DNA of 63,721 bases from an uncultured Clostridia bacterium (GTDB taxonomy: Bacteria > Bacillota > Clostridia > Christensenellales > CAG-138). The notes under the pieces are model-generated. The model did no database searches. It was not told the origin of the DNA and saw nothing but the letters and a program-made list of their open reading frames with translations. How positions within the stretch are numbered: position 1 is the stretch's first letter; every line of letters begins with the position of its first letter. The position numbers and the translations under genes were made by a program. Shown one piece after another: positions 7,029-27,021 of the stretch. The stretch covers positions 1 through 63,721 of the forward strand of contig CAJOKM010000001.1 in NCBI GenBank assembly GCA_905235205.1, written 5' to 3'.

Positions 7029-7057
7029 TTGACGGAAACAGCGGGCACGTATACAAT
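7029..7057 (+). promoter_or_regulatory. Sigma70-type promoter of the five-gene TIR operon
   Basis: TTGACG (7029-7034), 17-nt spacer, TACAAT (7052-7057). SD GGAGGA at 7097-7102; ATG at 7108. Confidence 0.6.
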
Positions 7058-7107: not shown

Positions 7108-7917
7108 ATGGTGAGGTTTTCGGAGCTTTTTCCGCCGTATGGGGGCGAACAGCCGTATCTGTATTTTTGCTTTTCAGACGCGGATGCGAGGCGACTGCGG
7201 TCGCTGTTTCGGCGGCTGTATGAACGCGGCTGCCGCATCTGGTACCCCATAGGGCACGGCAGCACCGCTTTAGAGCGGGAACTGCGCGATGCGCGTATGC
7301 GCAAGGCACGGCTTGTGGTCCTGTATCAGACCAAACGTGCGCGTATGGATCAGGCGGTAAAGAGCGCGGTGCTCGTTTGTCAGGAGAAGAGCATCCCGAT
7401 CATCAGCCTCGACGCGGACGACGCGGAAAGCACGCTGTCCATGGGGCTGGATTCACGCGCGGTCCATCTCAAAATGCGCAGCGTCGATGCGACGGAAACC
7501 GCATTGCTCCATGCGAACGGCTTTTCACAGGAGTTGATCGGTCCATCGTTGCCCGTTCGCAAAAAGCCGGTTCTTGCGATTGCAACCGCAATTTTCGCCG
7601 CTGTGTTTCTGATGATCGGCGCAGCGGCTCTGGTTCGGCGCCTTCGTCCGCCCCCGACGGAACAGCCCGGCGATACGGTTTTCTTTTCCGATCCCGTCCT
7701 GACCGCGGCGGTGCGGGACGCGCTTGGCGGCGAACCGATCACCGAAGAATCGCTTGAGACGGTTACGACGCTTCGTTTCGATGCGCTGCCCGAACATACG
7801 GATGAGCTTGCTTTGCTTTCCAATCTTTCCCGCATCAAATTGAATCAGGCGAATGCGGACGACGCCGCTTCGCTTCTCGAACGGTATGAAATCGTGCTGA
7901 CGGGAGGCGGGCTATGA
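7108..7917 (+). CDS. TIR-like domain / single TM / short LRR-cap protein (paralogue 1, degenerate TIR)
   Basis: The N-terminus LFPPYGGEQPYLYFCFSDAD...RIWYP...LVVLYQ parallels the gene-2 TIR core. TM helix at aa 154-176 (PVLAIATAIFAAVFLMIGAAALV). The C-terminus FFSDPVLTAAVRDALGGEPITEESLETVTTL is an internalin-type LRR N-cap. The stop overlaps the next start (ATGA). Confidence 0.8.
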   Translation: MVRFSELFPPYGGEQPYLYFCFSDADARRLRSLFRRLYERGCRIWYPIGHGSTALERELRDARMRKARLVVLYQTKRARMDQAVKSAVLVCQEKSIPIISLDADDAESTLSMGLDSRAVHLKMRSVDATETALLHANGFSQELIGPSLPVRKKPVLAIATAIFAAVFLMIGAAALVRRLRPPPTEQPGDTVFFSDPVLTAAVRDALGGEPITEESLETVTTLRFDALPEHTDELALLSNLSRIKLNQANADDAASLLERYEIVLTGGGL

Positions 7918-9089
7918 GCGTCTACTTTAAGCCGTACGAGGGCAACCGCCCCTACCTTTTCATCAGCTATTCGCACCGCGATTCCGAGGCGGTTCTCAAA
8001 ACCATCACGCTGCTGCACAATCGCAAGCTGCGGCTATGGTACGACGAGGGCATTCCGGCGGGCAGCGATTGGCCGAAAAATATCGAAGAGCATATGCAAA
8101 GCTGCTCGATGGTGCTGTTCTTTGTCTCCGAAGCCGCGTTGGATTCTCCCAACTGTCTGAGCGAGATCGAAGCCGCGCTTGCGCTGAAAAAGCCCGTTCT
8201 GCTGCTGCCGCTTTCGGATACGACGCCAAACGCAAAATGGAACGAGCTGCTTCCGCAATGTACAAGGCTTTCGTCCGGTTCCGATGCTTCTGCGCGTACC
8301 GAAACGGTTCTTTCCTGCAAACGGGTTACGCGTGCGTACTATCGCAGACCGCTTGAAAACCTGCGGTTCGATCGACTGATGCTTGTGTTCGCGCTGTTGC
8401 TGCTTGTTGCCGCCGCGACAGGACTGTATGCGCTGATAACGGGGCGGTTGGACCGCTACCTCCTTCCGCCGTCGACGCCCGTACCGACCGCGCGTCCGAC
8501 ACCGAGCGCTATGCCCGTGCCGACCGAAACGTCCGAACCGACGGCGACGCCGTACGTTCCCGGCATGGAAACGGTCACATTCCCGGATGTAAAGCAGGAA
8601 ACGGCGGTACGCAGCGCGCTGGGCGTTCCCGACGGCGATATAACGCTTTCCGATCTCGGCGGCGTGACGGAGCTGCATTTTTGCGGAACGATGGTGCTCA
8701 ACGATTTATCTGACGTCGCTTTCACAGAAGGCGCCTATGCCGTAAACGGCGCAAAACCGCTGACCGGTCCTGTCAAGGATCTCTCCGTGATCGGGCGGAT
8801 GCCGTATCTTGGGAGGCTTTCGCTGATCATGCAGCCGGTACAGTCGCTTGCCGCGCTCGATCGGCTCATGCTTCTGAACGAATTGAGCCTTGCGGGCTGC
8901 GAAAGCGTGGATCTTTCGACGCTGCCGGTGCTGCCGAGCCTCAATACGCTGCACCTTGAACACAGCAATGTGCGCGATCTTTCCGCGCTGAACACACAGC
9001 CCTCGCTTGAGACCGTGACTGTAAGTATCGATATGCTGCCGCTGACGTTTGCGGACGATGCGGCGTTTGACGTTGTTTTAGTACCGTAA
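7914..9089 (+). CDS. TIR domain / single TM / Pro-Thr linker / LRR protein (paralogue 2, canonical TIR)
   Basis: PYEGNRPYLFISYSHRDS...LWYDEGIPAGSDW...VLFFVSEAALDSPNCLSEIEAAL...PVLLLPL is a textbook bacterial TIR_2 pattern. TM at aa 155-177. Linker PPSTPVPTARPTPSAMPVPTETSEPTATP. Then LRRs (LSDLGGVTELHF, LSVIGRMPYLGRLSL, LAALDRLMLLNELSL...). Confidence 0.9.
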   Translation: MSVYFKPYEGNRPYLFISYSHRDSEAVLKTITLLHNRKLRLWYDEGIPAGSDWPKNIEEHMQSCSMVLFFVSEAALDSPNCLSEIEAALALKKPVLLLPLSDTTPNAKWNELLPQCTRLSSGSDASARTETVLSCKRVTRAYYRRPLENLRFDRLMLVFALLLLVAAATGLYALITGRLDRYLLPPSTPVPTARPTPSAMPVPTETSEPTATPYVPGMETVTFPDVKQETAVRSALGVPDGDITLSDLGGVTELHFCGTMVLNDLSDVAFTEGAYAVNGAKPLTGPVKDLSVIGRMPYLGRLSLIMQPVQSLAALDRLMLLNELSLAGCESVDLSTLPVLPSLNTLHLEHSNVRDLSALNTQPSLETVTVSIDMLPLTFADDAAFDVVLVP

Positions 9090-9119: not shown

Positions 9120-12100
9120 ATGGTCAAGATTACGTACCGAAAAAAGAAGCTGTTCCCGCTGTATGCCAAGGCCGACGAGGAGAAGGTCATGCCGATCCTC
9201 GAAGCGTTGAAGGCAAAGGGATTTCCGATCGCAGACGAAAGTGATACGCCGAACAAGCGCTGCGTGATGCTGCTGTTCACGTCAGAACGGCTGAACGAAA
9301 CCCCTGCGCTTTCGGAAACGTTCTTCGCCAATGACGCGAAGGGGGTGGGGACGGTGCCGGTGAACCTCGACGGATCGATGCCGCCGGAGCTGCTGAAAAA
9401 CGCGCTCTATTCGCGCAACACGATCTTTGCCGAGCGCTACTCCGTAGACGAGCTTGCGGAACGCATAGCGACCGCAAAGCCGTTCGAAGTGTCGAAAAAG
9501 CCGCTTCCGATCATCCTTACGGCTGCCGCTGCCGTTCTCGTGATCGCCGGAGGCATTTTCTTTGCGACAAAGCTGCTGCCCGCAAAGGAAGCGGTCGCAC
9601 CTGAACCGACGGCGGAGCCGATCATTCCCACCGAAGCGGGGCTTACCGCGGCGGACCTTGAAAACGTCTATGAGCTGATCATCATCGGCGATGAATTGCA
9701 CTATTTCACCGGAACCGAAGGGATCGCGGAGAAAAACGGCTGGGCGCGCATCGGCGCCGAGTACTTTGCCAACCGCACCGAGGAGGATCTGCTCGTGCAC
9801 TGGTACAGCAAGGAGGACGGGCACGAGATCGGGCTTGCCGCATGGAACGACCTCGACTTTTTGCGGTACATGAAGAATGTGAAATTCATTACGCTTGTGC
9901 GTGTGGCGGGAGAACTTCCGGATCTTTCGGGTCTTGAAAGGCTCGACAATGTGGAACTGCTGGATTGCGACGTCACGAGCCTCGACGGACTGAAAAACGC
10001 CCGGATCGTCAATTTCGACTATTCCGGCAATACGCTGACGGACTTTTCGCCGCTGTCCGACTGCGAACGGCTTCGCTCTGCGTATCTGACGCTGTTCGAC
10101 CCGATCCCCGCCGATCTGACGTCCTTTGGGCCGCCGAGTTTGACCGAGCTTTACCTCGACACCGACAGCTCGGCAAGGACGATCGACCTTTCCGGCTTGC
10201 AGAACTGTCCCGATCTTTCGACTGTCAGGCTCGACAGCCTGCCTCTGACCGATCTTTCCTGCCTTTCCGCATGCAAAAAGCTGCACGAGCTGGAGCTTGT
10301 GACCATGCCGGAGCTTCGAAGCCTTGACGGATTACAGGATCATCAATATCTGTTTCGGCTCAGAGTCGATGAATGGAGCGAGGACCTGCGCGACTGCTCG
10401 GCGCTTTCGGACAACATAAGCCTCCATTACGTCGATCTGCATAACGGCGCATTAAACGATCTTTCGTGGCTTTCGAACGCAAAGAATCTCGAAGAGCTTG
10501 ATCTTTGGGGCATGAACGGCATGCGAAGCCTGCGTGGTCTCGAGGAGCATACAAGCTTACGGCGCGTGCATATCGAGGGGCTGGAACACCTCACCGACAT
10601 CTCTGCGCTCGAAAGCTGTACGGGACTTTTAGAGATCCATTTGAGCAGCGTCTTCGACCTTTCGGACGTCTCCCCCGTCGTGAAGCTTCCGAATCTCAAA
10701 AGTTTTGAAATCTACGGCTCGCAGCTTCGAGACGTCGGCTTCCTTTCGGATATCGTCAACAAGAACGGCTTCTCCTTCGGTATCGCGGAGGTTGACGACT
10801 GGTCGGGGCTGGAGGCGATTAAAAACTACGACTATCTGAACGTCACCGACCGCACCGGAAGCGCCCTGCCCTATCTCAGGGACGCAAAGATCCACACCTT
10901 CGAACTTTGGTGCCGCAGCGACTACAGCAATTGGAGCCGGGAGCCGCTCGACTGGTCGCAGTTCCCGAACGTCACGCAGAATCTGACGCTGCACGGGGTC
11001 GTGTCTTTGGAAGGCATGCCACAGCTTCCGATCACGGGGCTGTTCATCGACGATTCGCAGACGCTGACGTCGTTGGAGGGCATTCAGAATCTGTCAAATG
11101 CGAAAAACGGCATGCTGTGGCTGAATGTCAAGGGCTGTCCGCGTTTGACGGACTGGTCGGCGCTCGGCGGAATGAAGCTTGCCGAAATCTGCTGTGAAAA
11201 TACGTTCACGCTGCCGGACTTTGCGGCGATCGATACAAGTTCTATCGAGCTGATGGAGCCGGTCGATCTCTTCGACTTGCACTGTTTCGACGGCATGGAT
11301 CCGGATCGCAGCGTCTCCATCGAGCTGTTCCAGACGATGGACGTTACCGATCTAAAGCCGCTGTACGGAATCAAAAACGGCTACCTGCTGAAGGTCCCCG
11401 CGCATCTCGGGGAGCAGGCGCAGCTGCTGGTGGAAAGCGGCAATTTCCGCGATTACGAGATCGTCTATCCGGACGAGTGGTGGGAGCCCGCCGAGTTTCA
11501 TGTGGAGCTCCTGTCGTTCAACGAGCTCGACACGCTGCCGAGCGCGGTGTTAAGCCGTGTGAAGGATCTGAACGCGGTCGGCGATGTGATCTTTTCCTGG
11601 GAGGAGTATCGGCCGGATCAGCAATGGGACGGCGATCAGCCGACCTTTGTGCTGCAGTCGAACGACGGCGACGAAAGCCACGACATCGTGATCGAGCATC
11701 CCGGCACGCTGACCGATTTTTCCAAGCTGTCCAAACTGACCGGACTCGAACAGCTGAACCTGATCTGTCAGTCCTTTACATCGGTCGACGGCATTCAGAG
11801 TTTGCAGGAGCTTCGGGATCTTGAACTCTCCTTCACGCCGACGCTGACCGACGCGTCTCCTGCGTTCACGCTGCAGCAGCTCGAAGACCTGCACCTGCAG
11901 TATACCGGCGTGACAAGCATACAGGGCGTTCAGAATCTGCAGAATCTGCGCTGGATGGATCTGAACGGATTGAAGCTCGACGATCTCACCCCGCTCGGCG
12001 GCATACCGGAGGACTGCGGTTTCACGTTCGACTTCCCGCTGATGACGGTCGATGAATTCCTTGCGCTGCCGGACAGCGTGCTGTCTCGCATCCGCGAGAT

Positions 12101-12956
12101 CGGATTTTTCGGAAAATACGTGACAAAGGACCCGTGGGGCGATCTGTGGCTGGAGGAGGACTGGGACGGCGGCGACAGGCCGGAGCTGTATCTGCACGAC
12201 AATGCAACCGGCGAACGCTTCCCGATCGGGGAGGGACCGATTGCCGATCTTGGGCTTTTGACCCGCTTGCCGAATCTCGAAACGCTGTATTTGTACGGAC
12301 AGCCGATCGAATCGCTCGGCGGCATCGAAGCAGCCGGAAATCTCCGTCGGTTCGATTCGCGCTGGACAAATCTTTCCGATCTTTCGCCGCTGTATGATCT
12401 CCCGCAGATACAGGTCGTCTGTATCGAGAACACGGAAACGGTCACCTCGATCGAGGGCGTACAGAAGCTTCCGCATCTGACCGATCTGAACATCGGCGGC
12501 GACAACCTGACGGACATAAGCGCGATCGCAGAGATTAACTATTCGTTCTGCATGACGCCGGACGGGGACGGCAATGTGCCGTACTTCGTCCTCGGCGTGG
12601 ACAACCTGCAGGGGAAAATCCCGGATGAGCAGTATGCGGTTCTGTCCGCCGTGCCGGAGTATCAGAGCCTGAACGTGTTCAACACGGACTGCGCGCTGTG
12701 GATGGATGCTGTGAAGGATGTGAAAATCCATGAGATCCACGCGGGCAACTGCCGCTTTACCAACGAATCGTTCCGGCAGTTTATCGAACAGCACCCCGAG
12801 CTCGAATACATCAAGGTGTCGTGGACGCCGGAACTCACCGATATTTCGCCGCTTTTGACGCTTCCGAATCTGCGCGCGGCGTGCGTGTCGAACAATATGC
12901 AGCCCGCGATCCGGAGCCTGGGCGACGGATACGGGTTTGATCTCGAGATCGAATAA
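9120..12956 (+). CDS. Divergent TIR-like domain / single TM / very large LRR ectodomain protein (paralogue 3, 1278 aa)
   Basis: SD GAAGGAGG. The N-terminal ~120 aa (KKLFPLYAKADEEKVMPILEALKAKGFPI...VMLLFTSERLNETPALSETFF) is a diverged copy of the TIR core. TM at aa 129-150. More than 1,100 aa of 22-residue internalin-type LRRs follow (LTDFSPLSDCERL, LTDLSCLSACKKLHELEL, LNDLSWLSNAKNLEELDL...). Confidence 0.85.
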   Translation: MVKITYRKKKLFPLYAKADEEKVMPILEALKAKGFPIADESDTPNKRCVMLLFTSERLNETPALSETFFANDAKGVGTVPVNLDGSMPPELLKNALYSRNTIFAERYSVDELAERIATAKPFEVSKKPLPIILTAAAAVLVIAGGIFFATKLLPAKEAVAPEPTAEPIIPTEAGLTAADLENVYELIIIGDELHYFTGTEGIAEKNGWARIGAEYFANRTEEDLLVHWYSKEDGHEIGLAAWNDLDFLRYMKNVKFITLVRVAGELPDLSGLERLDNVELLDCDVTSLDGLKNARIVNFDYSGNTLTDFSPLSDCERLRSAYLTLFDPIPADLTSFGPPSLTELYLDTDSSARTIDLSGLQNCPDLSTVRLDSLPLTDLSCLSACKKLHELELVTMPELRSLDGLQDHQYLFRLRVDEWSEDLRDCSALSDNISLHYVDLHNGALNDLSWLSNAKNLEELDLWGMNGMRSLRGLEEHTSLRRVHIEGLEHLTDISALESCTGLLEIHLSSVFDLSDVSPVVKLPNLKSFEIYGSQLRDVGFLSDIVNKNGFSFGIAEVDDWSGLEAIKNYDYLNVTDRTGSALPYLRDAKIHTFELWCRSDYSNWSREPLDWSQFPNVTQNLTLHGVVSLEGMPQLPITGLFIDDSQTLTSLEGIQNLSNAKNGMLWLNVKGCPRLTDWSALGGMKLAEICCENTFTLPDFAAIDTSSIELMEPVDLFDLHCFDGMDPDRSVSIELFQTMDVTDLKPLYGIKNGYLLKVPAHLGEQAQLLVESGNFRDYEIVYPDEWWEPAEFHVELLSFNELDTLPSAVLSRVKDLNAVGDVIFSWEEYRPDQQWDGDQPTFVLQSNDGDESHDIVIEHPGTLTDFSKLSKLTGLEQLNLICQSFTSVDGIQSLQELRDLELSFTPTLTDASPAFTLQQLEDLHLQYTGVTSIQGVQNLQNLRWMDLNGLKLDDLTPLGGIPEDCGFTFDFPLMTVDEFLALPDSVLSRIREIGFFGKYVTKDPWGDLWLEEDWDGGDRPELYLHDNATGERFPIGEGPIADLGLLTRLPNLETLYLYGQPIESLGGIEAAGNLRRFDSRWTNLSDLSPLYDLPQIQVVCIENTETVTSIEGVQKLPHLTDLNIGGDNLTDISAIAEINYSFCMTPDGDGNVPYFVLGVDNLQGKIPDEQYAVLSAVPEYQSLNVFNTDCALWMDAVKDVKIHEIHAGNCRFTNESFRQFIEQHPELEYIKVSWTPELTDISPLLTLPNLRAACVSNNMQPAIRSLGDGYGFDLEIE

Positions 12957-12968: not shown

Positions 12969-14999
12969 ATGGCATACACCGCTTTGGAGCAGATGCGAAC
13001 GGTCAACAGAGAGCGCTTCGGCGCGGATGTCGGACCGTTTGAACCGGCGCTGTACGGCGCGGGCAGAACGGGCAGCGATTTGAAATCCGCCGCGCTGCGG
13101 TTTTTGCACGAGCGCTGCGAGGGACTGCGCTTCTCGCCCGAAAAGGCGCAAAAGGAGAAACAGACCGGACAATATCTCGGCACGAGTTTCCGACCGAATC
13201 AGATTCCGTACAACATGCAGATGGATCTCGACCGACTTTGTCTTGAACGCGAACTGGAGAGCTTTATCGACTCCGGCGTCGCCGAGGACGCGTACACGGT
13301 CTATTACAGCTTTTTGAAGATGTTCCTCGGCGCCTACGGACGCTCGAGCAAGATGATCGAGCTTTTATCGGAGTTTGAATCGAACGCCAGCTCCCTTCTG
13401 ATGAAGCATCGCGATCACTATTCCCACTCGGTTTATGTGTTCGCGCTGGGGCTCGCGATCTACGAAACGAACGAGCGGTTCCGCACGACGTTTCAAAGAT
13501 TCTACGGCTTCACGTCCGATCGGGACGAGCATTCCGCCGCGGCGTTCTTCCTGGAATACTGGGGGCTGACCTCGCTGTTCCACGACATCGGCTACCCGTT
13601 TGAGATCCCGTTTGAACAGGTGCTCGCCTACTTCGAGGTCGACCGCAAAAAACGCGGCAACGGCAGCCTGTACCTTGCCTATCGCGACCTTGACTGCCTG
13701 TCCGGTCTGGACGAAATAACAAGCGCGCATCTTGCAGCGCTGTTCGGGAGACCGTTCGACACCGTGGAGGAGCTGCTCGCTTACGGAATCGGGAAACGGC
13801 TCGGCGCAGCATACGATGTGACGGAAGAATACCTGCTCGATACGATCCGCCGGAAACCCGTCGAACCGAACCGATTCGGATACTTCATGGATCACGCGTA
13901 TTTTTCCGCGACGCGGCTCTGTCAGGAGCTTTGCGAGGTGCTCGGCGAACAGGCGCTGACCGAAGCGCACGTCGACGCGCTGACCGCGATCATGCTGCAC
14001 AACAGCCTTTATAAGTTCGCGATCGCGTTTTATAAGGATCCGGACAGGCGAAAGCCGCCGCTCAAAGCCGAGCTGCATCCGCTTGCGTACCTTTTGATGC
14101 TGTGCGACGAGCTGCAATGCTGGGACCGTACCGCGTACGGCAGGAATTCTCGCACCGAGCTGCATCCGATGGACGCCGAGTTCGATTTCGGCAGGGGCAT
14201 GATCCACGCGCTCTACTGTTTCGACGCCGAGGAATCCGAAAAGATCGGCGAGTACGAAGCGCGCTACCGCGCGTGGGAACAGGGCGGCAAGCAGGATGCG
14301 CCCCCGCGCTTGAAGGCGTACAGCGACATGGCGGAAACCGAACAGCGCTTCCGCACGGACATCGAAAAGATCGTCGATCTAAGTGACTATCCGCTGTTTA
14401 TCACGACGTTTATGCGCACCGCGGACCGCAAGAGCAAGCATACCTATCTGTCCGGCAGCAGCTTTCTGCACATGTACGATTTTGCCGTGGCGATCAACGG
14501 ACGCTATCAGTATGAGGGCAGGGAGCAGGAAGTTTCCGTGGAGCAGCTCGAACGCGATTTTGATACGATGTCGCTCGAGTATCAGCTGAGCAACATCAAC
14601 CAGGTCAAGAGCTTCTCGAAGTACCTGAACGCGATCGGCTGCTTCTACACGGACCGCCCGGTCGATTTTGAAATGCTGCGCGCGTTTACCGCGGAACAGA
14701 CAGCCGTGTTCGCGCCGATGGAGCACGCCCGCTGGGTGCGGTCACATCGCGCGATGGACTGGACTGCCGGAAATCTCTATGAAACGGTTGCAGCGGACGG
14801 AGAAACGAACCGCTTTGTGCTGCGCGAGCAGATGCGGCAGCACAAGCTGTGCATGAACGGCGATTTCGGAGAGCTCGAGATCGCGCGGCACTATCTCAAC
14901 CTGTCCGAGGCGGATCAAGGCAAGGACTGGAAACCGTTCAATTCCATGTTGAAGCTGATCCGCAAGTTCGACGGACTGCGAATCTACAAACTCGGTTGA
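12969..14999 (+). CDS. HD-domain phosphohydrolase (SAMHD1/dGTPase-style motifs) with C-terminal RyR-type repeats
   Basis: SD AAGGAGG, 12 nt after the previous stop. HD motifs RDHYSHSVYV, LFHDIGYPFE, MLHNS, LCDELQCWDR. C-terminus MEHARWVRSHRAMDWTAGN...RQHKLCM...LSEADQGKDW...MLKLIRKFDG compares with the RyR repeat pattern (HE.W..GWTYG..K..HPCLV..LPE.EK...LKTLLALG). A degenerate first repeat is FAVAINGRY...LSNINQVKSFSKYLNAIGC. Confidence 0.85.
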   Translation: MAYTALEQMRTVNRERFGADVGPFEPALYGAGRTGSDLKSAALRFLHERCEGLRFSPEKAQKEKQTGQYLGTSFRPNQIPYNMQMDLDRLCLERELESFIDSGVAEDAYTVYYSFLKMFLGAYGRSSKMIELLSEFESNASSLLMKHRDHYSHSVYVFALGLAIYETNERFRTTFQRFYGFTSDRDEHSAAAFFLEYWGLTSLFHDIGYPFEIPFEQVLAYFEVDRKKRGNGSLYLAYRDLDCLSGLDEITSAHLAALFGRPFDTVEELLAYGIGKRLGAAYDVTEEYLLDTIRRKPVEPNRFGYFMDHAYFSATRLCQELCEVLGEQALTEAHVDALTAIMLHNSLYKFAIAFYKDPDRRKPPLKAELHPLAYLLMLCDELQCWDRTAYGRNSRTELHPMDAEFDFGRGMIHALYCFDAEESEKIGEYEARYRAWEQGGKQDAPPRLKAYSDMAETEQRFRTDIEKIVDLSDYPLFITTFMRTADRKSKHTYLSGSSFLHMYDFAVAINGRYQYEGREQEVSVEQLERDFDTMSLEYQLSNINQVKSFSKYLNAIGCFYTDRPVDFEMLRAFTAEQTAVFAPMEHARWVRSHRAMDWTAGNLYETVAADGETNRFVLREQMRQHKLCMNGDFGELEIARHYLNLSEADQGKDWKPFNSMLKLIRKFDGLRIYKLG

Positions 15000-15012: not shown

Positions 15013-16602
15013 ATGGCAAAGCATGATACGATCCCGATCGTCGTCGGCGTGACCGGGCATCGGGATCTTCGCCCCGAGGATCGGAACGTTTTATCCGATG
15101 CCGTCAAACAGGAACTGACCGCGCTGCAGAAAAAGTGTCCTCATTCCGAGATTGTCTTGATGAGCAGTCTTGCCGCGGGCGCGGATCAGCTTTGTGCCGA
15201 GGCTGCGCGGGATTGTTCCGTTCCGCTGATTGCCGTTTTGCCGATGGAGCAGCCGGAATATGAACAGGATTTTTCGGGGGAGGAGCTTGTCGCGTTCCGC
15301 TCCATTTTGAGCGCTGCCGCGGATTGCTTTGTCGCACCTCGCACGGAGCAGGCACCGACCGCGCCGGATCGGGACTTTGCGTACCGGCAGGCGGGCATCT
15401 ATGTCGCTTCGCACGCGCACGTACTGCTTGCGCTTTGGGACGGAACCGAATCGCCCGCTTCCGGCTGCGGAACTGCGGCAACAGTGCATTTTGCGTTGGA
15501 CGGCGCATATATACCGGAGCATTCCATCCCGCTCGGCGGCGGCTGTCCCGTGCTGCAGATCCAAACGCCGCGCAACGGCACCGATGCAGTCAACGCCGGA
15601 GACGTGCGTTTTCTCGGCGATCGCGCCGCATTTGAGGAGATTTTGTCGCGAACCGACGAGTTCAACCGCCTTGCCGCAAAAACGTCCTCGTCCGGATCGG
15701 AGCTTTTGCCCGCGGACCGGGAACCGGACGCGCAGCTCGACCGGTTGGAAACGCTGTATGAAAAGGCGGACGCATTGAGCGTTCGCTTTGCAAAACAGTA
15801 CCGGAGGATTCTTGCCGCGCTCGCGGTCGTCAGCACGATCATCACGATCGCATTCCTTCTGTATGATGAAGCCGAACTGCATTGGATGATTCTCGTTTGC
15901 GGTTTTATGCTGCTGTCCGCGTGGCTGATTCAGTACAGCGGAAAACGGATCGCCTGCCATAGACGGTATCTGGAATACCGGACGCTTGCGGAAAGCATGC
16001 GCGTGCAGGCATTTCTGCGGTATGCAGGGAGCAGACTGCCCGTTTCCGGGATCCTGCCGTGGTCGGCGCGTTCGGAGACCGGATGGGTCGCCGCAGCGCT
16101 GAAGACCGGCGCCGTCAGCACGCCGTATCCCATGCACAGCATCCGTGCGCCGTGGGTGGAACAACAGAGGGATTATCACGTCCGCGCCGCGCAAAAGACG
16201 AAGCGCGCGCTGTTCTTCAGCGAGCGCATCGTCAAAGCCGCCCTTTGGATCAGTGTCGCTTTGTATCTGGGCGTTCTGGTATTCGAACTCGTTTGGGGCG
16301 ACCTGCTGCCGTTCGGCACGCATATTGCCGGTGCCGACCGCTATCGAACGCTGTCCAAACTGCTTCTCGGCGGCGTATCCGCGGCAACGCTGTTCATTTC
16401 CAATTATTTCGGGCGGCTGTCTCTCTCCCGCGCCGTTTCGGATCACAACAAAATGAAGCGGTTCTACAGCGCCGTGCTGAATCGACTCGATCGGTACGGT
16501 CAAACGGACGAACTGCTGCGGCAGCTTGCAAGGGAGGAACTGATCGAAAACGGCAGCTGGTGCTCCTACCGGCGCGACAATTCCGCCGAGTTCAGTTTGT
16601 GA
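15013..16602 (+). CDS. SLOG-like (DprA/LOG/YpsA-type Rossmann) domain fused to four TM helices (two SLATT/DUF4231-like 2-TM modules)
   Basis: SD AGGAGAG, 13 nt after the previous stop. N-domain: IPIVVGVTGHRDL, IVLMSSLAAGADQLCAEAA, PLIAVLP, VLLALWDGTESPASGCGTAATV. C-half: ILAALAVVSTIITIAFLLY / WMILVCGFMLLSAWLIQY followed by HRRYLEYRTLAESMRVQAFL. Then AALWISVALYLGVLVFELVW / LLLGGVSAATLFISNYF. Domain names from motif memory. Confidence 0.85.
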   Translation: MAKHDTIPIVVGVTGHRDLRPEDRNVLSDAVKQELTALQKKCPHSEIVLMSSLAAGADQLCAEAARDCSVPLIAVLPMEQPEYEQDFSGEELVAFRSILSAAADCFVAPRTEQAPTAPDRDFAYRQAGIYVASHAHVLLALWDGTESPASGCGTAATVHFALDGAYIPEHSIPLGGGCPVLQIQTPRNGTDAVNAGDVRFLGDRAAFEEILSRTDEFNRLAAKTSSSGSELLPADREPDAQLDRLETLYEKADALSVRFAKQYRRILAALAVVSTIITIAFLLYDEAELHWMILVCGFMLLSAWLIQYSGKRIACHRRYLEYRTLAESMRVQAFLRYAGSRLPVSGILPWSARSETGWVAAALKTGAVSTPYPMHSIRAPWVEQQRDYHVRAAQKTKRALFFSERIVKAALWISVALYLGVLVFELVWGDLLPFGTHIAGADRYRTLSKLLLGGVSAATLFISNYFGRLSLSRAVSDHNKMKRFYSAVLNRLDRYGQTDELLRQLAREELIENGSWCSYRRDNSAEFSL

Positions 16603-16815
16603 AAAAGATTCATACGCCGACGATACCGCGCTGAATGCTGCCGCACCGCTGACAAACGACGAGAAAACGGTCTGATCGATCTTTCTGTTGGAGCGATGCA
16701 TGAAGGAAAAGCTCTGCATACGTTTTCGGGACTGCGTCTGCACACGTCGTACGGATTCGTTTTTTTTACATTGTTTCGGAGATCATTTATCTGTTTTGGC
16801 TTTGGCATATAAACA

Positions 16816-16903: not shown

Positions 16904-19900
16904 TTACGGCTGAAGCGGAAGCGAATCGATCAGCGCAATGACATAGCGCAGGATTGCCGCCGCATCGCCTGCAGTGACCTGTGTGTCACAGTCAACATCT
17001 GCGTTGAGCATGCCGAGCGGCGTGAGCGTCGAGAGCCCGACAATCGAGCGCAGGACCATCGCCGCGTCCGCGGAAGTGATCTTTCCGTCGCAGTTCGCAT
17101 CGCCGTACACGATCGGGATCATCGGAAGCACGACGTCCTTCGTCTGGGCCGTAAACGGCTCCTTCGTGAATACGGCGGTGTAGCGTCCGAGACCGTCCGC
17201 GCCGGGGGAGGGCTCGGTCACGACTTCATAGGTTACCGTACCCGTTTCTGTGACGATATGGCTTTCGTCATTTCTGCAGACGGCGGATGCTTCAACCGTA
17301 TAGCCCGTATCGGTCTCTGCCCATACATAGACGGGTTCGCCGTAATCGTGTCCCGTTGCGCCGAGCGTTTCGGCGACCGTATTTGTAAAGGCCTTTTCGT
17401 GGAAGACGACCGTCGCCGTATGTTTGCGCTCGCCTTCTGTCGTGCAGCCCGGATGAACCGTGATCTCGGTTTCGATCGCGTCGCCCGCGGCTGCAACATC
17501 GATCTTGAACGTTGCGTCATCCTTTGCGGTGAACGTCGCAGTTGCGGACGAATAATCTTCCGCCCACTGCCAGGTCGGCTCATTGTACAGCCGCGCAGAC
17601 TGCGTGTACGTCGCAGTGTAAACGGCGTTTCCGACGGCAGGACTCAACTGAGGGGTCCAACCGCTGAACGTGTAGAGATATGCTTCCGTCGGCGCCTTAA
17701 CCGGAGTTTCTCCGGTGTATACGGGCGTCTCTCCATGCTCCGTTTCCACGCGCAGCAGTTCGGTGCCGTCTTCATTTTGGAAGATGATCACGTAGACAGC
17801 CTTTTTAAACGTTGCGGAAACGGTGACATTGCCTTTCGGCATAACGAACGAAGCAGTGTTGTCATCGTTCAGTGTGACCTCAACCGTGTTCGATCCCTGT
17901 GTGACCGTGACCGTGTCGAGCACATAGCCGGTTTCCGGCTCGAAGGTCAGTGTGACGGTCTCGTTTTCTTCGGCGTAGGGCTTATCCGCCGAGACCGTGC
18001 CGTTCCCGGTTCCGGCGGAAACGGTGACCTGATACATCCGCGCTACCTTGATGTAGTTTGCAAACCATTCGCTTCCGGTGCCCTTGTGCGGGCGGAAGTA
18101 GACGCGATAGCGGCCGCTTGCGGTGATCTCGCCGTGTTCGCCGTAGTTGTTGCCCATGCCGGTCGGGTACCAGGTCGTTGTTGCCGAGCCGTTGGCAGAA
18201 TACACAACCTTGAACTGGCTGGACGTTGTCAGGTTGATTTCATGCTTGTATTCCTCGGGATCGACGCCGATCTTCGTCATCTTATATGCGGAGTTGACGC
18301 TCCAGCCGGTCATGCTGCCGACCAAATAATATCCGGACGCTGCCAGCGGAGAATTCGGATCCACATAGAGACAGTTCTTGAACCAGTCGTCGGGTCCGTC
18401 GTAGCCCGGACGGAAATAGACGCGGTAAACGCCGCCTTCGGTGATCTCGCCGTTCTCGCCGTAGTTCTCCGACGGATCGGGGTACCAGACCGTTTTCTCC
18501 ACGCCGTCATCGGAGTACACGACCTTGAACTGGTCGTTCGTCATCAGTTCAACGTCGAGATAGTATTCGTTCGTGCTGGCGAACTCGTTCTTCGTCAGCA
18601 TGTATTCCGGCTTGAGGCTCCAGCCGTTCATGGTGCCGACGAGGTAGTATCCTTCCGCCTCGATGGGTGTCGCCTCGATCAGTTCAATGTAAATGCAGTT
18701 TTTATACCAGTCGTCCCCGCCGGAATAATCCGGGCGGAAATAGACGTGATAGGTGCCGCGTACGGTAATCTGATCGTCTACGCCGAAGTTGTCCGCCGGA
18801 TCGGGGAACCACTTTGTTTTGGTCTCGCCGTCCGCAGAGTATACGACCTTGAACTCGTCGCCCGTCTTCAGTTCGAGGTCGATGACGTATTCGTTCGCAG
18901 CGGTTCCCTCGTTCTCGGACAGCTTGTAGGCCGGATTGATATTCCAGTCGCTCATCGTACCGACCAGATAATATCCCTCGCCGCCGACAGCGGTCTTTTC
19001 ATACCAGCTCCAGGTGCCGCTTCCGTTCCAGTCGTCTTCCGTGACCGTGAAACAGTTGGTGCCGTTATCCGGATACAGATCGGCCGTCTGGTTCCACCTG
19101 GCGTCCCAGTTGTTCTCGGCGGCGTCCGGATCCATTCGGCAGAAAATCACCTTATTCCATTCGCCCTCGGGAAGTTCCGCTTCATAGACGCCGTCCCCGT
19201 CCTCGTCGGTCATGCCGACCCATTGCTCGTCGAGGCCGGTGTTATAGACGTACATTGCAAAACGGGCGCCGTCCTGTTTCCAGGTTTCGCTCGGTATCAG
19301 ATACAGAGGGGAAACATTGAGACTGTCCGTCGGAGCGTTTTCCGGCGTGTAGATGACGGCAACGCCGCTTGCGCCGACGGTGCCGCTGATGACGCCCTGC
19401 GATACGGTGAACGTGTTCTTCGTGACCTGATCCGTGTAGACGCCGTCCTTCATCCGGTATACAGGCAAACTGACCGCGCCCGCGCCGTTGAGATTTGAAA
19501 TCACGATTCCGTTCGTGCCGCGCTCAATGTATGCAACGTTGCCCGAGGAGGAAAGGTATTCGCTGGTTCCGTCAAAGTGATTCTTGAACTTGTTGATCTC
19601 CGCGACCGAAGGATCCTTCCACGTTTCATCGGTACTCGCCATACCCATCGTCTCGTTCGGTCTTGCCAGGAACAGCGAGGTGGAATCCGCTCTCGCGCCG
19701 ACGATCGCCCATGTCCTGACGATCACTGCGTCGGAGATGCCGGACGAATTATTGTGCATATAGGTGTCGTGCGATTCCGCCCAGAGCACACAGTCCCGCG
19801 GGATCGCTTTTTTCTGATACTGGAAGCTTGCAAGTCCGGAGGCGTTTTTGCTGTTCGCGTTCGAGCGCGCGCTGTCGCCGGTGTCGTTGTCGGTCACGGC

Positions 19901-20749
19901 CATCAGGTCGGTGTAGTTCGAGATCTTCGTACCCGCGCCGCTGAGAACTTCGCCGTAGAAAAACAGCGGATCGCCGCCTTTTTGCGCATTGTACGCGCTG
20001 GCACCGTCAAGTACGTACGGCCAGAAATCGCTGGCGAAGCTTGCGTCGTCTGTAGGAAGCTCGATGTGCTTCGCCGCATCGAAGCGGAAGCCGTCGACGC
20101 CGCAGTCGACGCATTCCTTGAGCAGGTTCAGAACCTGCTGCTGAATATATGCGTTGCCGGTGTTCAGATCGGGCATACCCATATGATACTGCGTCATATT
20201 GAACCGGCTGCTGTCGTTGATGCTCTGCGTGTAAGGATGATAGTATTCCTCGACCTTGAGATCCTCGTCGACCGCTTCGCTCAAATGTGCAAAGGTGCCG
20301 CCCTCGGTATCGTTCGCGAGATGGTTGGCAACGATGTCGACAATGACCTTGATGCCGTATTGATCCGCTTCGGCGCAGAGCGCGGCCAATTCCGCTTTGG
20401 TGCCGAGCCACGACGTGGCGTTCTGCTCTGCGTCAGTCGGCGCAATGCGCAGACCGAGCGGCTGATACATTTTCCACCACTGACCGTCGAGATCCGTCCA
20501 CTCCGGAGAGTAGTCCTTCGGCTGCTGTGCGGGAGAGGTCTGTACGGCGGTATAGCCCGCAGCGGCGATCTCCGGCAAAGCGGCTTTGATCGAACTGTAG
20601 GACCAGTTGAAACAGTGCAGGATCGCACTGCCCTGAATAGTATCCTGCGCATAAGTCGTTGGGGTCGTTTCTGCAGACACGGCGATAGGAAGCAACGCCA
20701 GAAGCATACATAACGCCAGTAAAACGGAAACGCATTTTTTGAATCGCAT
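16904..20749 (-). CDS. Secreted GH13 alpha-amylase with tandem binding-module repeats, Ig-like/Listeria-Bacteroides repeats and a C-terminal type-I dockerin
   Basis: Signal peptide MRFKKCVSVLLALCMLLALLPIAVSA. GH13 motifs DIVANH, GFRFDAAKH, FYGEVL, WAESHD. Three GYYLVG.M..W modules. Dockerin GDANCDGKITSADAAMVLR...NADVDCDTQVTAGDAAAILR. Confidence 0.92.
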   Translation of the reverse strand: MRFKKCVSVLLALCMLLALLPIAVSAETTPTTYAQDTIQGSAILHCFNWSYSSIKAALPEIAAAGYTAVQTSPAQQPKDYSPEWTDLDGQWWKMYQPLGLRIAPTDAEQNATSWLGTKAELAALCAEADQYGIKVIVDIVANHLANDTEGGTFAHLSEAVDEDLKVEEYYHPYTQSINDSSRFNMTQYHMGMPDLNTGNAYIQQQVLNLLKECVDCGVDGFRFDAAKHIELPTDDASFASDFWPYVLDGASAYNAQKGGDPLFFYGEVLSGAGTKISNYTDLMAVTDNDTGDSARSNANSKNASGLASFQYQKKAIPRDCVLWAESHDTYMHNNSSGISDAVIVRTWAIVGARADSTSLFLARPNETMGMASTDETWKDPSVAEINKFKNHFDGTSEYLSSSGNVAYIERGTNGIVISNLNGAGAVSLPVYRMKDGVYTDQVTKNTFTVSQGVISGTVGASGVAVIYTPENAPTDSLNVSPLYLIPSETWKQDGARFAMYVYNTGLDEQWVGMTDEDGDGVYEAELPEGEWNKVIFCRMDPDAAENNWDARWNQTADLYPDNGTNCFTVTEDDWNGSGTWSWYEKTAVGGEGYYLVGTMSDWNINPAYKLSENEGTAANEYVIDLELKTGDEFKVVYSADGETKTKWFPDPADNFGVDDQITVRGTYHVYFRPDYSGGDDWYKNCIYIELIEATPIEAEGYYLVGTMNGWSLKPEYMLTKNEFASTNEYYLDVELMTNDQFKVVYSDDGVEKTVWYPDPSENYGENGEITEGGVYRVYFRPGYDGPDDWFKNCLYVDPNSPLAASGYYLVGSMTGWSVNSAYKMTKIGVDPEEYKHEINLTTSSQFKVVYSANGSATTTWYPTGMGNNYGEHGEITASGRYRVYFRPHKGTGSEWFANYIKVARMYQVTVSAGTGNGTVSADKPYAEENETVTLTFEPETGYVLDTVTVTQGSNTVEVTLNDDNTASFVMPKGNVTVSATFKKAVYVIIFQNEDGTELLRVETEHGETPVYTGETPVKAPTEAYLYTFSGWTPQLSPAVGNAVYTATYTQSARLYNEPTWQWAEDYSSATATFTAKDDATFKIDVAAAGDAIETEITVHPGCTTEGERKHTATVVFHEKAFTNTVAETLGATGHDYGEPVYVWAETDTGYTVEASAVCRNDESHIVTETGTVTYEVVTEPSPGADGLGRYTAVFTKEPFTAQTKDVVLPMIPIVYGDANCDGKITSADAAMVLRSIVGLSTLTPLGMLNADVDCDTQVTAGDAAAILRYVIALIDSLPLQP
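18040..18985 (-). repeat. Three tandem ~105-110-codon modules inside the amylase gene (putative starch-binding beta-sandwich repeats)
   Basis: Each unit starts (E/S)GYYLVG(T/S)M..W. The first two end DDW(Y/F)KNC(I/L)Y(I/V) and the third ends SEWFANYIKV. Boundaries are approximate. Confidence 0.6.
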
Positions 20750-21147: not shown

Positions 21148-21164
21148 GATAAGTCAACATTGAT

Positions 21165-21190
21165 TGGTTTGATGGATGTTGATAAACCGA
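21165..21190 (-). repeat. Second, degenerate anti-repeat-like copy upstream (5') of the functional anti-repeat
   Basis: 21170-21187 (TGATGGATGTTGATAAAC) is identical to repeat positions 13-30. The flanks are diverged and it lacks the part complementary to the repeat 5' end. Confidence 0.8.
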
Positions 21191-21212
21191 CATCATCCCT
21201 GAGCACAGAATC

Positions 21213-21241
21213 ACTATACCACAGAAACAGTAAGGAGTCAA
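21213..21241 (-). promoter_or_regulatory. Strong sigma70-type promoter for tracrRNA, overlapping the cas9 SD
   Basis: Minus strand: TTGACT (21241-21236), 17-nt spacer, TATAGT (21218-21213), with an upstream TG (extended -10 TGGTATAGT). The -35 overlaps the cas9 SD AAGGAG (21232-21237). Confidence 0.65.
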
Positions 21242-21243
21242 GT

Positions 21244-24200
21244 ATGGAACAGAAACTGAATTATGTGATCGGATTGGACATTGGCATCGGATCGGTCGGC
21301 TGGGCGGCAATCAATCTGGATAAACGCCGCATAGAGGATTTCGGCGTTCGCCTGTTTGACTCAGGAGAAGATACAAGGCAGAAAGAGCGAAAAAGCCAAC
21401 AACGCCGCGGATATCGCTCTGCGCGTCGGCTCGTCCGCCGCCGTGCGCACAGGACCGTACGCTTAAGGCAACTGTTCGACAAAATAGGGCTTGTGTCCGC
21501 AGATGTGCTTGATCGGTATTATCAGAACCCGACAGCAAATCCTTTGGAACTGCGCGTACGAGGGCTGACGGATAAGCTTTCGCCTGCAGAGCTCGCCGCT
21601 GCGCTGTTGCACATTGGAAAGCATCGCGGCTTTAATGAATTCTATTCTTTGCATGATGAGGAAAAGAAATTGCTCTCGAAAGACGAAAAAAATGATCTCA
21701 CCAGAGCGGAAGCATACGAAACGCTTAAGAAGTCTATGCCCGATATGACTCCGGCGCAGCTGTATCTTTCTCACCCGATGTTTATGTCGGAGTTCGGCGT
21801 ACGGTATCGCAACACAAAGAAGCAGGATGAAAGCAAAAAGGTGCTTGTCCCGAGATCGGAAATCGAGAAGGAAACGCACCGCATCTGCGAAAAGCAGGCG
21901 GCATTTTATCCGTGTCTTACGGAACAGAATCGTGAAAAGATCTATGAAATTCTGTTCCGCCAACGTGATTTTGAAGATGGTCCGGGCGATCCGAATGATG
22001 AAACGAGGCCGTACAAGGGCTTTTTGGAAACGATCGGAAACTGTCGGTTTTATCCGGAGCTGAAGCGCGGCGCAAGGCAATCCGTACTCGGCGATCTGTT
22101 TGTATTGATCAATCGTCTGTCACAGAATCGTTATTTTAACGCGGAAACCGGAGAGGTCGTTGATTCCGCCGACGCGTATCGTGAAATCATCGAGAAGGCG
22201 TTGCTGAGCGGATCGCTGGAAATAAAGGAAGCAGAAAAGATCCTGAAGCGCTATGGGACCGAAATGCTGAATACAAACGACAAGTCGGCGGATTCTCCGA
22301 ATCGCTGCCTTGCGTTTATACGAATGATCAAGCCGATTCTTGAGAAAAACGGATTTATCTGGGAGGATATCATCCGTGCTGAGTATCCGTTCGCGCCGTA
22401 CCGTGAGGATTCTTTTTTGAATCAGGTCGGAAAGATTCTTTCTGAAAACCGCACACCGCAGAGACGGGTTAATCTGCTGAAACAAGCGGGGATATCGGAC
22501 GCTGTTGCTAAAGCGCTTGCAAATCGCAAAACGAGCGGAACGGTCAGCGTCAGCAATCGATACATGCTCGAAGCGGTTGAAGCGTTTATGAACGGGGAAC
22601 TGTTCGGCGCTTATAATGCCCGCAGAGAAAAGGAACTGCTTGCCGAGACGCGCGCTGCAAAGAAGTATAAAAAGCTGCCGCCGATCGAGGAAGGCGATTA
22701 TATCGATAACCCTGTCGTGTTCCGCAGCATCAATGAAACGCGCAAAGTCCTTAACGCTGTTATAGAGAAATATGGTTCGCCGAATGCGATCAACATCGAG
22801 ATTGCAGCGGAATTATCCCGGACGTTTGATGAACGGGATCGCATGAACCGCGAAAAAACAAGGAATGAGAAAGAGAACAAGCGGCTGCAGGAACAGATCG
22901 CAGAGTTGCTTCATACAAAGGACGAGATCATGCCGACGCAGGTCGAACGCTATCGTCTCGGAGAATCACAGGGATGGAAGTGCCCATACTGCGGCGCGTC
23001 GATTGTGATGGAAACTGCGATCCGGAGGGATGATCATTCCTATGAGATCGATCATATCATTCCGTATTCGTTGATCCTCGACAATACGCTGCATAACAAG
23101 GTTCTTGTCCATCACGGCTGCAATCAGGCGAAGGGGCAGCGAACGCCGTTGATGTATCTCGGAAATGACGCGGCAAAGAAGGCCGATTTTGTGAAATGGG
23201 TGAATGCTGCATTCAATAAAGATTGCGTTTCCAAACGAAAACGCGAGTATCTTCTGCAGCCTGATTTGAATGATGAACGGATGCATGATTGGAAAACGCG
23301 CAATCTGAACGATACACGGTATATCGCAAAATATCTTGTCCGCTATCTGAACGAGAATCTGTTGTTCGATTCCGAGGAAAAGACCAATGTGTACGCCGTG
23401 AAAGGCGCGATCACCTCGCAGCTGCGCCGCGTGTGGCTGAACAAGGAAACATGGGGCTGCGAGGACAAGACGGGTCTTCGTAAGGAAAGCAATCTGCACC
23501 ACGCGGTCGACGCGGTTGTAATTGCAAATTGCATGCCGGGTTATATCGAACTTGCCGAAGAAGCGCTGCGGCTGCGGAGAATGTATCACGAGGAGGGAAA
23601 GCGCGAAACGGAGAAATGGACTGCCGTGCTGAACAACGCTGTTGACCGACTGTATCGGTATTATTGCATGCCGAAGGTGTATGCGGAACAGATGCTGCGC
23701 AATATCAAGCGGATCCCGTCGTTCATTCCGAACCTGCGCGAGGAGGTCGACACCCGGTTCTGCGGTTGCGGGCTTGAAAACGAAGCGGGTTACCGCTCCA
23801 AAATCCGCACATTCTATCGTGATGATCCTGCGTTTGCAGCTCAGATTCGCATGCCGCTTGTTTCATACAAGCCGAACAGGAAAGCAACCGGAAAGGTCAC
23901 GGCCGATAAAGCGGTGAAAAAAGGTGCATCGCAGGGCTTGCTGGTTAAGAAGATCGCGGAAGACAATACGACAACGTTGGATGATGCAAGCTACTACTGC
24001 ACGGAAGTGTATCGCAGAAAGGACGGAACGCTCGGCCTTCGCGGAATCCGGTATTCAATGCTGAAAAAGATGCAGGGTAAAATAGTCCTTGCAGATACGC
24101 TGCAGGAAGATTATGCAACGCATGAAGTGTATCTGTTCAAGAACGATTATATTAGGATTTACGATAAAAATAATAAGATCAAGTTTGAAGGTTATTATTT

Positions 24201-25262: not shown

Positions 25263-25582
25263 TAAATCGATTTATGCGGGTGATGGTTTTTTTCGATTTG
25301 CCGGTGAATACGGCAAAGAAACGAAGGGAGTATACGCAGTTTCGACGTTATCTGATTCAGGACGGTTATTTCATGCTCCAGTATTCGGTATACGCCCGAA
25401 CGGTGCGAAACAGGGATGACGCAGAAAGTCACATCGCAAAACTGAAATCGGCGCTGCCGCCGGAAGGATCGGTTCGTGCTTTGCTTGTAACCGAGAAACA
25501 GTACGAAAACATGCGTGTTTTATTGGGAGATCGCTATGCGGAAGAAGCATATCTTGACTCAACCGATTTACTGGAGTTATAA
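25259..25582 (+). CDS. cas2: Cas2
   Basis: ATGA overlap with the cas1 stop. MRVMVFFDLPVNTAKKRREYTQFRRYLIQDGYFMLQYSVYAR is the typical Cas2 beta1-alpha1-beta2 pattern. Confidence 0.93.
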   Translation: MINRFMRVMVFFDLPVNTAKKRREYTQFRRYLIQDGYFMLQYSVYARTVRNRDDAESHIAKLKSALPPEGSVRALLVTEKQYENMRVLLGDRYAEEAYLDSTDLLEL

Positions 25583-25616
25583 TACTTGTGGCAGAAGGCC
25601 GGGAAATACCAAAAAA

Positions 25617-26918: not shown

Positions 26919-27021
26919 CGGCGCAATGAACGAATTCTTGCGCACCTGCTCGATACGCCTTCTTGCGTCATCCAGGACCGCTGTGGAATAGCGAATCATA
27001 AAACCCTCCGTCGACTCGATG

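Follow-up and report, generated by a model that had tools for sequence, protein, structure and literature searches.

A SLOG protein with four membrane helices in a Clostridial TIR operon: a putative Thoeris-type membrane effector

The last gene of a five-gene operon in an uncultured Clostridia bacterium encodes a protein that joins a SLOG domain to four transmembrane (TM) helices. We consider it somewhat better than an even bet that this protein, here called g5, acts as the membrane effector in a Thoeris-type operon that signals through TIR-made nucleotides, a reading that comes from its genomic context. The gene lies on contig CAJOKM010000001.1 (assembly GCA_905235205.1), in a stretch of 63,721 nucleotides that was analysed as a whole and that we call the window. 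The protein has a SLOG fold, a layout of two plus two TM helices, a first hairpin that appears to be a remote member of the SLATT clan and conserved membrane helices, and its family is linked to TIR genes across phyla.

In the mechanism that we propose, one or more neighbouring TIR proteins would be activated (here the triad g1, g2 and g3, of which g2 carries a catalytic glutamate) and would turn NAD+ into a messenger derived from ADP-ribose. The messenger would bind the cytoplasmic SLOG domain of g5 and so act on the four-helix part (a DUF4231/SLATT-type hairpin and a second hairpin), changing its conformation or how it assembles. The membrane would then turn permeable: ions would leak, the cell would depolarise, and it would stop growing or die. 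The outcome of g5 action would presumably be defensive.

15013-16602, plus strand: g5, SLOG-4TM protein of 529 amino acids with an ATG start; final gene of the five-gene operon.

A gene had been placed at this position in a preliminary description of the window, and it is real: there is an open reading frame (ORF), a ribosome-binding site (GGAG, 5-9 nucleotides upstream of the start, which itself follows the stop of the preceding gene g4 after a gap of 13 nucleotides), and the product has full-length homologs (more than 820, each about 530 amino acids long). A longer ORF runs antisense to g5 (15091-16743, minus strand). It is an artefact of the kind typical of GC-rich coding DNA; the full-length homologs are those of the plus-strand product. 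The motifs quoted in the preliminary description are all there as well: GVTGHRD (residues 12-18), SSLAAGADQLCAEAA (51-65), IAVLP (73-77) and ALWDG...SGCGTAATV (140-158). They are under selection and not due to chance. All of 17 homologs with 51-70% identity share G12, G15, H16, D58, C61, W142, D143, G144, C152 and G153, and most of these positions are at least 90% conserved among 77 homologs.

15013-15615, plus strand: cytoplasmic SLOG domain of g5, YpsA/DprA-like (residues 1-201), from Foldseek, Pfam YAcAr and conservation.

The AlphaFold2 model of g5, made from 17 sequences, is confident (mean predicted local distance difference test, pLDDT, 84.5; predicted template modelling score, pTM, 0.83) and folds residues 9-201 into alternating strands and helices in a Rossmann-like manner. 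When the model is compared with the PDB by Foldseek, all credible matches belong to the SLOG superfamily (YpsA, several DprA, ShosA and LOG-like structures), all with a probability of 1.00 and about 155-170 aligned columns. The best match is YpsA 2nx2 (E 7.7e-5, TM-score 0.63 on the target). Judged by its modelled fold, the N-terminal domain is a SLOG of the YpsA/DprA type, in agreement with the DprA/LOG/YpsA pattern that had been recognized in the letters. Sequence searches of the PDB, with the single sequence and with a 61-sequence profile, both returned no meaningful match, so that the SLOG identity of g5 rests on the comparison of folds. Proteins of the SLOG superfamily (SMF/DprA-LOG) have a Rossmann-like alpha/beta fold of three layers with a parallel sheet, and their nucleotide pocket is lined by two loops, a Gly-rich one that follows strand 1 and one of the G-x-G-T type that follows strand 4. 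The conserved loops of the family are G12-x-x-G15-H16, G56-A-D58, W142-D-G144 and C152-G-T154; those with the residues G12-V-T-G15-H16 and C152-G153-T154 in g5 are invariant or at least 90% conserved. We infer that the SLOG domain would bind the TIR product, which would presumably be an ADP-ribose derivative.

15730-16032, plus strand: first membrane module (residues 240-340) with pre-TM helix, TM1, TM2 and post-TM helix; remote DUF4231/SLATT-clan module.
15802-15870, plus strand: TM1 (residues 264-286), from hydropathy and model.
15880-15945, plus strand: TM2 (residues 290-311), from hydropathy and model.
16144-16599, plus strand: second membrane module (residues 378-529) with pre-TM helix, TM3, TM4 and two C-terminal helices.
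16225-16296, plus strand: TM3 (residues 405-428), from hydropathy and model; contains the conserved E425.
16345-16410, plus strand: TM4 (residues 445-466), a helix in the model with marginal hydropathy.

The remaining part of g5 is built around the membrane. Hydropathy gives three clear segments, at about residues 264-286, 290-311 and 405-428. The fourth (about 445-466) is marginal, as it stays under the hydropathy threshold of 1.3 with a hand-calculated Kyte-Doolittle mean of about 1.15; the AlphaFold2 model has a helix there (H441-466), and distant homologs, all of which keep the 2+2 spacing, have a clearly hydrophobic TM4. The two pairs of TM helices that had been proposed from the sequence are thus borne out. 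In the model, a 48-residue helix ends as TM1, a very short loop leads into TM2, and a conserved amphipathic helix follows (residues 315-337). A stretch of about 40 residues with lower conservation leads to a 51-residue helix that ends as TM3, and a 12-residue loop connects TM3 to TM4 and two C-terminal helices. Both modules share the order helix, TM, TM, helix. The distribution of charges would place the SLOG domain, the region between the hairpins and the C-terminus in the cytoplasm.

Both pairs had been assigned to the SLATT/DUF4231 type, and this assignment is supported for the first pair and unproven for the second. The first module has a long pre-TM helix and a highly conserved post-TM helix. 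Pfam DUF4231 matches 48 of 61 g5 homologs (best E 3e-7), and its accession PF14015 appears in the precomputed annotation of many homologs. Among the NCBIfam models, SLATT_3 matches 60 and SLATT_1 44 of the 61, SLATT_3 with 21-23 bits where the cut-off is 45. By these profile matches the first hairpin appears to be a remote DUF4231/SLATT-clan module. For the second pair, the segments of 59 of 60 homologs had no SLATT or DUF4231 match in Pfam, and the remaining one had a weak match to SLATT_1. Aligned with hhalign, the two modules give a probability of 5% with close homologs; with 107 diverse representatives, 70 columns come into register (probability 47%, P 2e-4). We do not take this as homology since it barely exceeds the compositional control, in which the first module reaches P 1e-3 against its own reversed sequence. 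An origin of the two hairpins by internal duplication seems plausible but is unproven.

The membrane helices are conserved to a degree that one would not expect of a tether. The frequency of the most common residue is 0.74-0.80 in TM1, the post-TM helix and TM4, compared to 0.66 in the SLOG core, and conservation reaches at least 90% at the polar residues Y284-D285-E286, E425 (in TM3), R445 and K449, which lie in or at the membrane. The conservation of both the helices and these polar residues argues that the membrane part is not a mere anchor. We infer that it would form a pore or channel.

The gene has close and widespread ties to TIR genes. We looked at the surroundings of g5 homologs in 80 loci from different species, 48 of which were well covered (7.5 kb or more upstream, 2 kb or more downstream). 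TIR ORFs were present in 40 of these 48 loci from rumen and gut Clostridia, a g4 homolog in 36 and both in 31; 25 loci contained exactly three TIR ORFs. Nearly all TIR ORFs (97/106) were oriented in the same direction as g5. The order of the genes varies while the set is kept: it is either g1-g2-g3-g4-g5 or g4-g1-g2-g3-g5. In other loci, the triad of TIR proteins, which here carries leucine-rich repeats (LRRs), is replaced by TIR-TM-WD40, TIR-Sel1/TPR or DUF4062-NACHT (STAND) proteins (L012, 25-2859; L032, 1673-4009; L057, 4223-8092). That g5 stays constant while the TIR sensors are interchangeable is the signature of one effector that reads a TIR product.

Distant relatives in other phyla show the same association. 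In Rhodoferax, the order is SLOG-4TM, TIR protein and nSTAND1-WD40, and on two metagenomic contigs a distant relative of g5 occurs with TIR-TPR proteins. The Caballeronia plasmid pSBC2-4 encodes a DUF4231 protein, a TIR protein and a WD40 protein in this order, and the SLOG domain is homologous at a probability of 98.8%. The TIR linkage of g5 therefore holds in the Clostridia and beyond.

Small SLOG proteins of the same kind are found in other settings. On the Bacillus subtilis plasmid pBS72 (L089, 4629-6483), an operon combines genes for a TIR protein and a caspase-family protein with one for a standalone SLOG protein of 162 amino acids, which is 32% identical to the N-terminal domain of g5 (E 3e-10) and belongs to the same subtype. 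This operon resembles a Thoeris-like system of type IV that has a small SLOG protein in addition. On Rhizobium plasmids, a similar SLOG gene adjoins a caspase-family gene.

The family to which g5 belongs is large. An exhaustive profile search found 8,743 clusters at 50% identity with E <= 1e-3, and 1,574 with E <= 1e-30; full-length matches of the g5 profile occur in proteins of 560-600 amino acids. In the relatives that we sampled, the only names were ‘hypothetical protein’ and ‘DUF4231 domain-containing protein’. A Pfam scan of ten distant relatives left eight without a match, and beyond DUF4231 the Pfam searches of the samples gave a few weak and partial matches. Near relatives of g5 come from rumen and gut Clostridia, and at least 581 of about 599 pattern-matched genome stretches encode a relative. 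Distant relatives were found in Rhodoferax, Symbiobacteriaceae and Caballeronia. Two distant members, P0331 (836 amino acids) and P0370 (811 amino acids), carry 225-265 extra residues before the SLOG domain, which have no Pfam match and may be fused sensor or signal-generating domains. In phage genomes, there was a single weak match to the N-terminal domain, in a DprA-like protein of a Streptomyces phage, and hence no sign that the family is carried by phages.

In the window, g5 is preceded by four genes. All five are on the plus strand, with gaps of -4 to 30 nucleotides between them. The first three form the TIR triad:

7108-7917, plus strand: g1, divergent TIR-like N-terminal domain, one TM helix and a short C-terminal tail.
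7914-9089, plus strand: g2, TIR domain (residues 1-145), TM helix (about 155-177), Pro/Thr linker and LRR-like C-terminal domain.
9120-12956, plus strand: g3, degenerate N-terminal domain of about 125 amino acids, TM helix (about 130-152) and about 1100 amino acids of LRRs beyond it.

The TIR of g2 matches Pfam TIR_2 (E 4.6e-17) and the PADLOC ThsB models (E 1e-5), and TIRs of its type keep the motifs F-x-S-Y-x-H, W-Y-D-E-G-I and N-C-x-x-E. Its Glu84, part of the NC..E motif, recurs in at least 90% of 36 orthologs and aligns with the ...C..ELE segment of the TIR of Cat1, an NADase. The N-terminal domain of g1 is linked to g2-type and bona fide TIR_2 domains by iterative searches; domains of the g1 type do not have the conserved Glu. 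In g3, the N-terminal domain is weakly linked to the TIRs of g1 and g2, and the LRRs are well recognized (Pfam LRR_4, E 3e-26; LRR_EndoS, E 5e-15; an internalin-like NCBIfam model, E 1e-26). Only g2 retains a Glu of the catalytic type, and it is likely to be the catalytic TIR of the triad. With one putative catalytic and two degenerate subunits, the triad suggests a hetero-oligomeric receptor. What one would look for in a Thoeris operon, a TIR with a catalytic-type Glu in the same operon as the effector, is found here in g2 and the putative effector g5.

All three proteins have the order N-terminal domain, single TM helix, C-terminal part, and none has a signal peptide. Before the TM helix there is more positive charge than after it in g2 and g3; g1 is ambiguous. 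Domain order, the absence of signal peptides, the charge asymmetry of g2 and g3 and the Pro/Thr linker of g2 would together place the LRRs outside the cell. The LRRs are probably extracellular, which would give a bacterium the layout of a Toll-like receptor. We found no published description of such a TIR-TM-LRR triad in our search of the literature. To our knowledge, the validated Thoeris sensors are cytoplasmic. If the LRRs face outward, then bacterial TIR signalling could be triggered from the cell surface, as it is in the Toll-like receptors of animals.

12969-14999, plus strand: g4, 676 amino acids, member of an unnamed family; HD-type motif and RyR-like C-terminal motif.

The fourth gene has more than 2176 homologs, all of them called ‘hypothetical’. 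With 64-90% identity they are more conserved than g5. Invariant in g4 are H150, H153, H205-D206 and D380, an HD-type metal-binding motif, and a RyR-like motif at the C-terminus, E585-H586-x-R588-W589...W598. Among 17 members, Pfam RyR matches seven (best E 4e-4) and HD six (best E 0.0096). The HD/RyR assignment is thus based on the invariant motifs and on weak Pfam matches in a minority of homologs. The AlphaFold model of g4 is poor (pLDDT 58.6), and Foldseek returned no credible match for it; the best was an exopolyphosphatase at E 0.2. None of the four distant loci that we examined contains the gene, nor does the locus on the Caballeronia plasmid. In locus L085, a gene of 528 amino acids between the TIR gene and the SLOG-4TM gene was considered as a g4 relative and turned out to be unrelated. 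Hence, g4 appears to be specific to Clostridial systems and is accessory. It is a guess that g4 is a phosphohydrolase that would process or remove the messenger.

The idea of such an effector is not new. A ‘SLOG and 4TM’ or ‘4TM SLOG’ protein has been listed as an unverified putative Thoeris effector, with sources in Streptomyces sp. GKU 895 and Ca. Nitrospira nitrosa (Yirmiya et al. 2025, bioRxiv 10.64898/2025.12.03.692087, Tables S1-S2). Like g5, it combines a SLOG domain with four TM helices beside TIR genes and is proposed to respond to a TIR signal, and proteobacterial members of the g5 family have exactly this layout of two or three genes. The published operons consist of a TIR and an effector, whereas the operon in the window has three membrane-anchored TIR-like proteins with LRRs and, in addition, g4. 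When we searched with the published TIR (Table S1), we found only TIRs with 55-64% identity on short contigs that had no SLOG neighbour. Compared without alignment, by architecture and context, g5 is likely to be in the same family as the published protein. What is new here is the evidence for the fold, the measure of how large and how widespread the family is, the conserved second hairpin and, in Clostridia, the membrane-anchored TIR-LRR triad with its HD/RyR-like partner. A large unnamed family thereby acquires a defined architecture, with a SLOG head on four membrane helices that are conserved, and TIR as its regular partner.

Other Thoeris types resemble the g5 operon in parts. In type VII, a TIR is combined with the SLATT effector ThsH; the signal is canonical cyclic ADP-ribose (cADPR), and a breach of the membrane upon ligand binding is supposed. 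The likeness lies in the coupling of a TIR signal generator to a membrane effector of the SLATT clan. However, ThsH is described as a SLATT protein that lacks a SLOG, its ligand pocket being modelled between SLATT protomers, while in g5 the SLOG forms a head of its own and a further TM hairpin is present; the g5 family stays at the SLATT scores given above. Type I and type III offer the SLOG side of the comparison. The SLOG domain of ThsA, the SIR2-SLOG protein of type I, binds 3'cADPR, so that a SLOG as receiver of a TIR messenger is experimental there; the output of ThsA is SIR2, that of g5 a membrane module. Type III has several TIRs and one effector with a DprA-type SLOG, like the operon in the window, but g2 scores only 15.3 bits against the NCBIfam model ThcB4, whose cut-off is 220, and cannot be placed in this type. 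No Thoeris model was among the NCBIfam matches of g5, nor among 25 of the 27 matched families listed for 61 homologs.

The module of a helix, a two-TM hairpin and another helix is what g5 shares with the SLATT/DUF4231 effectors. Burroughs and colleagues reportedly predicted in 2015 that this SLATT module is a nucleotide-regulated pore former, and the name SLATT is said to record its association with SLOG. The difference is that g5 fuses the module to a SLOG domain and adds a second, family-specific hairpin that is conserved throughout the family. For two-TM SLATT effectors in CBASS and related conflict systems, Duncan-Lowey et al. (2021) are cited in the literature.

A last comparison is with eukaryotes. 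In TRPM2, the SLOG-fold region MHR1/2 binds ADP-ribose (ADPR) and is fused to a cation channel, and a SLOG-fold ligand head on a membrane protein would be the likeness to g5. This is an analogy only, as the channel of TRPM2 is tetrameric with six TM helices and unrelated to the 2+2 TM helices of g5, which is not a TRPM channel.

Several observations weigh against a role for g5 as effector of a Thoeris-type defence. First, two ‘SLOG and 4TM’ operons were tested in E. coli and gave no phage defence (bioRxiv 10.64898/2025.12.03.692087). Second, g5 itself falls just short of two curated Pfam cut-offs. Pfam YAcAr (PF10686; YspA/cpYpsA-related SLOG), which matches 28 of 61 homologs at E < 0.01, aligns with g5 over 57 of 66 profile positions at 23.9-24.8 bits (E 2e-5 to 4e-5), under the gathering cut-off of 28.2 bits, which makes g5 a remote relative and not a curated member; DUF4231 reaches 24.0-24.3 bits, just below its cut-off of 24.7. 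Third, the preliminary description had looked to ThsA, DprA and TRPM2 for relatives of the SLOG domain; DprA was matched, whereas no ThsA entry was among the 50 Foldseek matches listed, and the sole TRPM entry among them was TRPM8 9zcn, which is insignificant (E 0.14, probability 0.15). With YpsA and DprA as its nearest structures and no ThsA listed, homology does not imply that the domain binds a cADPR isomer. For the membrane half, the PDB holds no solved SLATT-like structure for comparison. Fourth, TIR genes are not always there: eight of the 48 loci have no TIR in the flanks that were fetched, and three have neither TIR nor g4. In L025, L026 and L034 (about 10001-11600), the g5 homolog sits among genes of the housekeeping type, such as that of a clostripain-family peptidase, and neither TIR nor g4 genes occur within 10 kb of it. 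Either the partners of such solitary homologs are encoded elsewhere or these proteins function without partners. Finally, a family that is very common in rumen Clostridia and whose sensors probably face outward would be unusual for phage defence.

The alternative that survives best takes up this last point. In it, the triad at the cell surface would sense a phage, a cell, a polymer or damage to the envelope, and the TIR product would gate g5 as a non-lethal ion channel, with g4 as the off-switch; this would be a bacterial counterpart of the logic that leads from a Toll-like receptor through cADPR or ADPR to a TRPM2-type channel. We think such outside-in signalling unlikely. It agrees with the domain order and charges of the triad, which would put the LRRs outside the cell, and with the TIR-TM-WD40 variant that holds the same position in other loci. 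The abundance of the family in rumen Clostridia and the degree to which g4 is conserved would also fit a housekeeping-like signalling module, and the invariant HD motif of g4 is consistent with turnover of a signal. Yet the other partners of g5 are cytoplasmic TIR-TPR proteins, TIR with STAND-WD40, and DUF4062-NACHT, which are typical of conflict systems, and the window has a type II CRISPR-Cas locus that starts 4.5 kb downstream of g5. SLATT effectors characterised to date act in abortive defence, and the topology of the triad comes from sequence alone.

One could also argue that the SLOG domain is an enzyme: g5 would then be a membrane-tethered, LOG-like N-glycosidase that processes nucleotides or ADPR and so makes or destroys the messenger, and the effector would be g4 or another protein. 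Enzymes such as LOG belong to the SLOG superfamily, the fold comparison of g5 lists LOG-like structures, the invariant polar residues H16, D58, D143, R125 and Q126 could form an active site, and g4 is conserved even more than g5. We consider this improbable, for the following reasons. The Glu of the LOG motif PGGxGTxxE has no fixed counterpart in the family, where the equivalent is C-G-T-A-[E/A]-x-V with Ala156 in g5, and this weakens the case for catalysis. Conservation of the membrane helices equals that of the SLOG core, more than a tether would need. Outside the Clostridia, relatives of g5 are paired with TIR proteins in the absence of g4, which leaves the SLOG-4TM protein as the sole candidate for the effector.

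It is very improbable that g5 is a DprA- or YpsA-like membrane protein with a part in DNA processes or division and no functional relation to the TIR genes, although YpsA and DprA head its list of fold matches, TIR and g4 genes are missing from the neighbourhood in a few loci and 15 of 61 homologs have weak NCBIfam matches to the divisome proteins SepX/GlpR: TIR linkage in 40 of 48 loci and across phyla led us to reject a DprA-like DNA-binding role, accessory domains specific to DprA are missing, and the SepX/GlpR matches lie on hydrophobic helices and far under any cut-off.

If the preferred reading of g5 as a Thoeris-type effector is correct, then its family is among the most widespread Thoeris-like effectors, still unverified. 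A more far-reaching version can be put forward for the operon as a whole, and we hold it tentatively, with more doubt than belief. The operon would be a surface pathway similar to that of the Toll-like receptors, in which an LRR-TM-TIR complex makes an NAD-derived messenger, the messenger opens g5 as a SLOG-gated four-helix channel, and g4 shapes or ends the signal. Were this true, LRR-TM-TIR proteins, a (c)ADPR-type messenger, a SLOG-gated conductance and a RyR-type domain would already form one module in Clostridia. This would have a bearing on the origin of eukaryotic signalling through TIR, cADPR and SLOG channels.

The surroundings of the operon contain a few further features. A promoter-like site lies 50 nucleotides upstream of g1:

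7029-7057, plus strand: promoter-like site TTGACG-17-TACAAT, a match to the consensus only.

Such sites are no more numerous in this region than shuffled sequence would lead one to expect. Convergent to g5, the minus strand encodes a secreted protein of 1281 amino acids (16904-20749). By eye it is alpha-amylase-like, with repeated modules of the carbohydrate-binding type and a dockerin-like C-terminus (DANCDGKITSADAA...DVDCDTQVTAGDAA). The type II CRISPR-Cas locus follows at 21160-26919, where GC content drops to 46-50%. Its ORF of 1074 amino acids (21160-24384, plus strand) appears Cas9-like on reading and is overlapped by an ORF of 305 amino acids (24345-25262). The CRISPR array (25625-26919) has 20 repeats of 36 nucleotides, GTTTTGGGCCTCTGATGGATGTTGATAAACTGATAC, at a spacing of 65-66 nucleotides.

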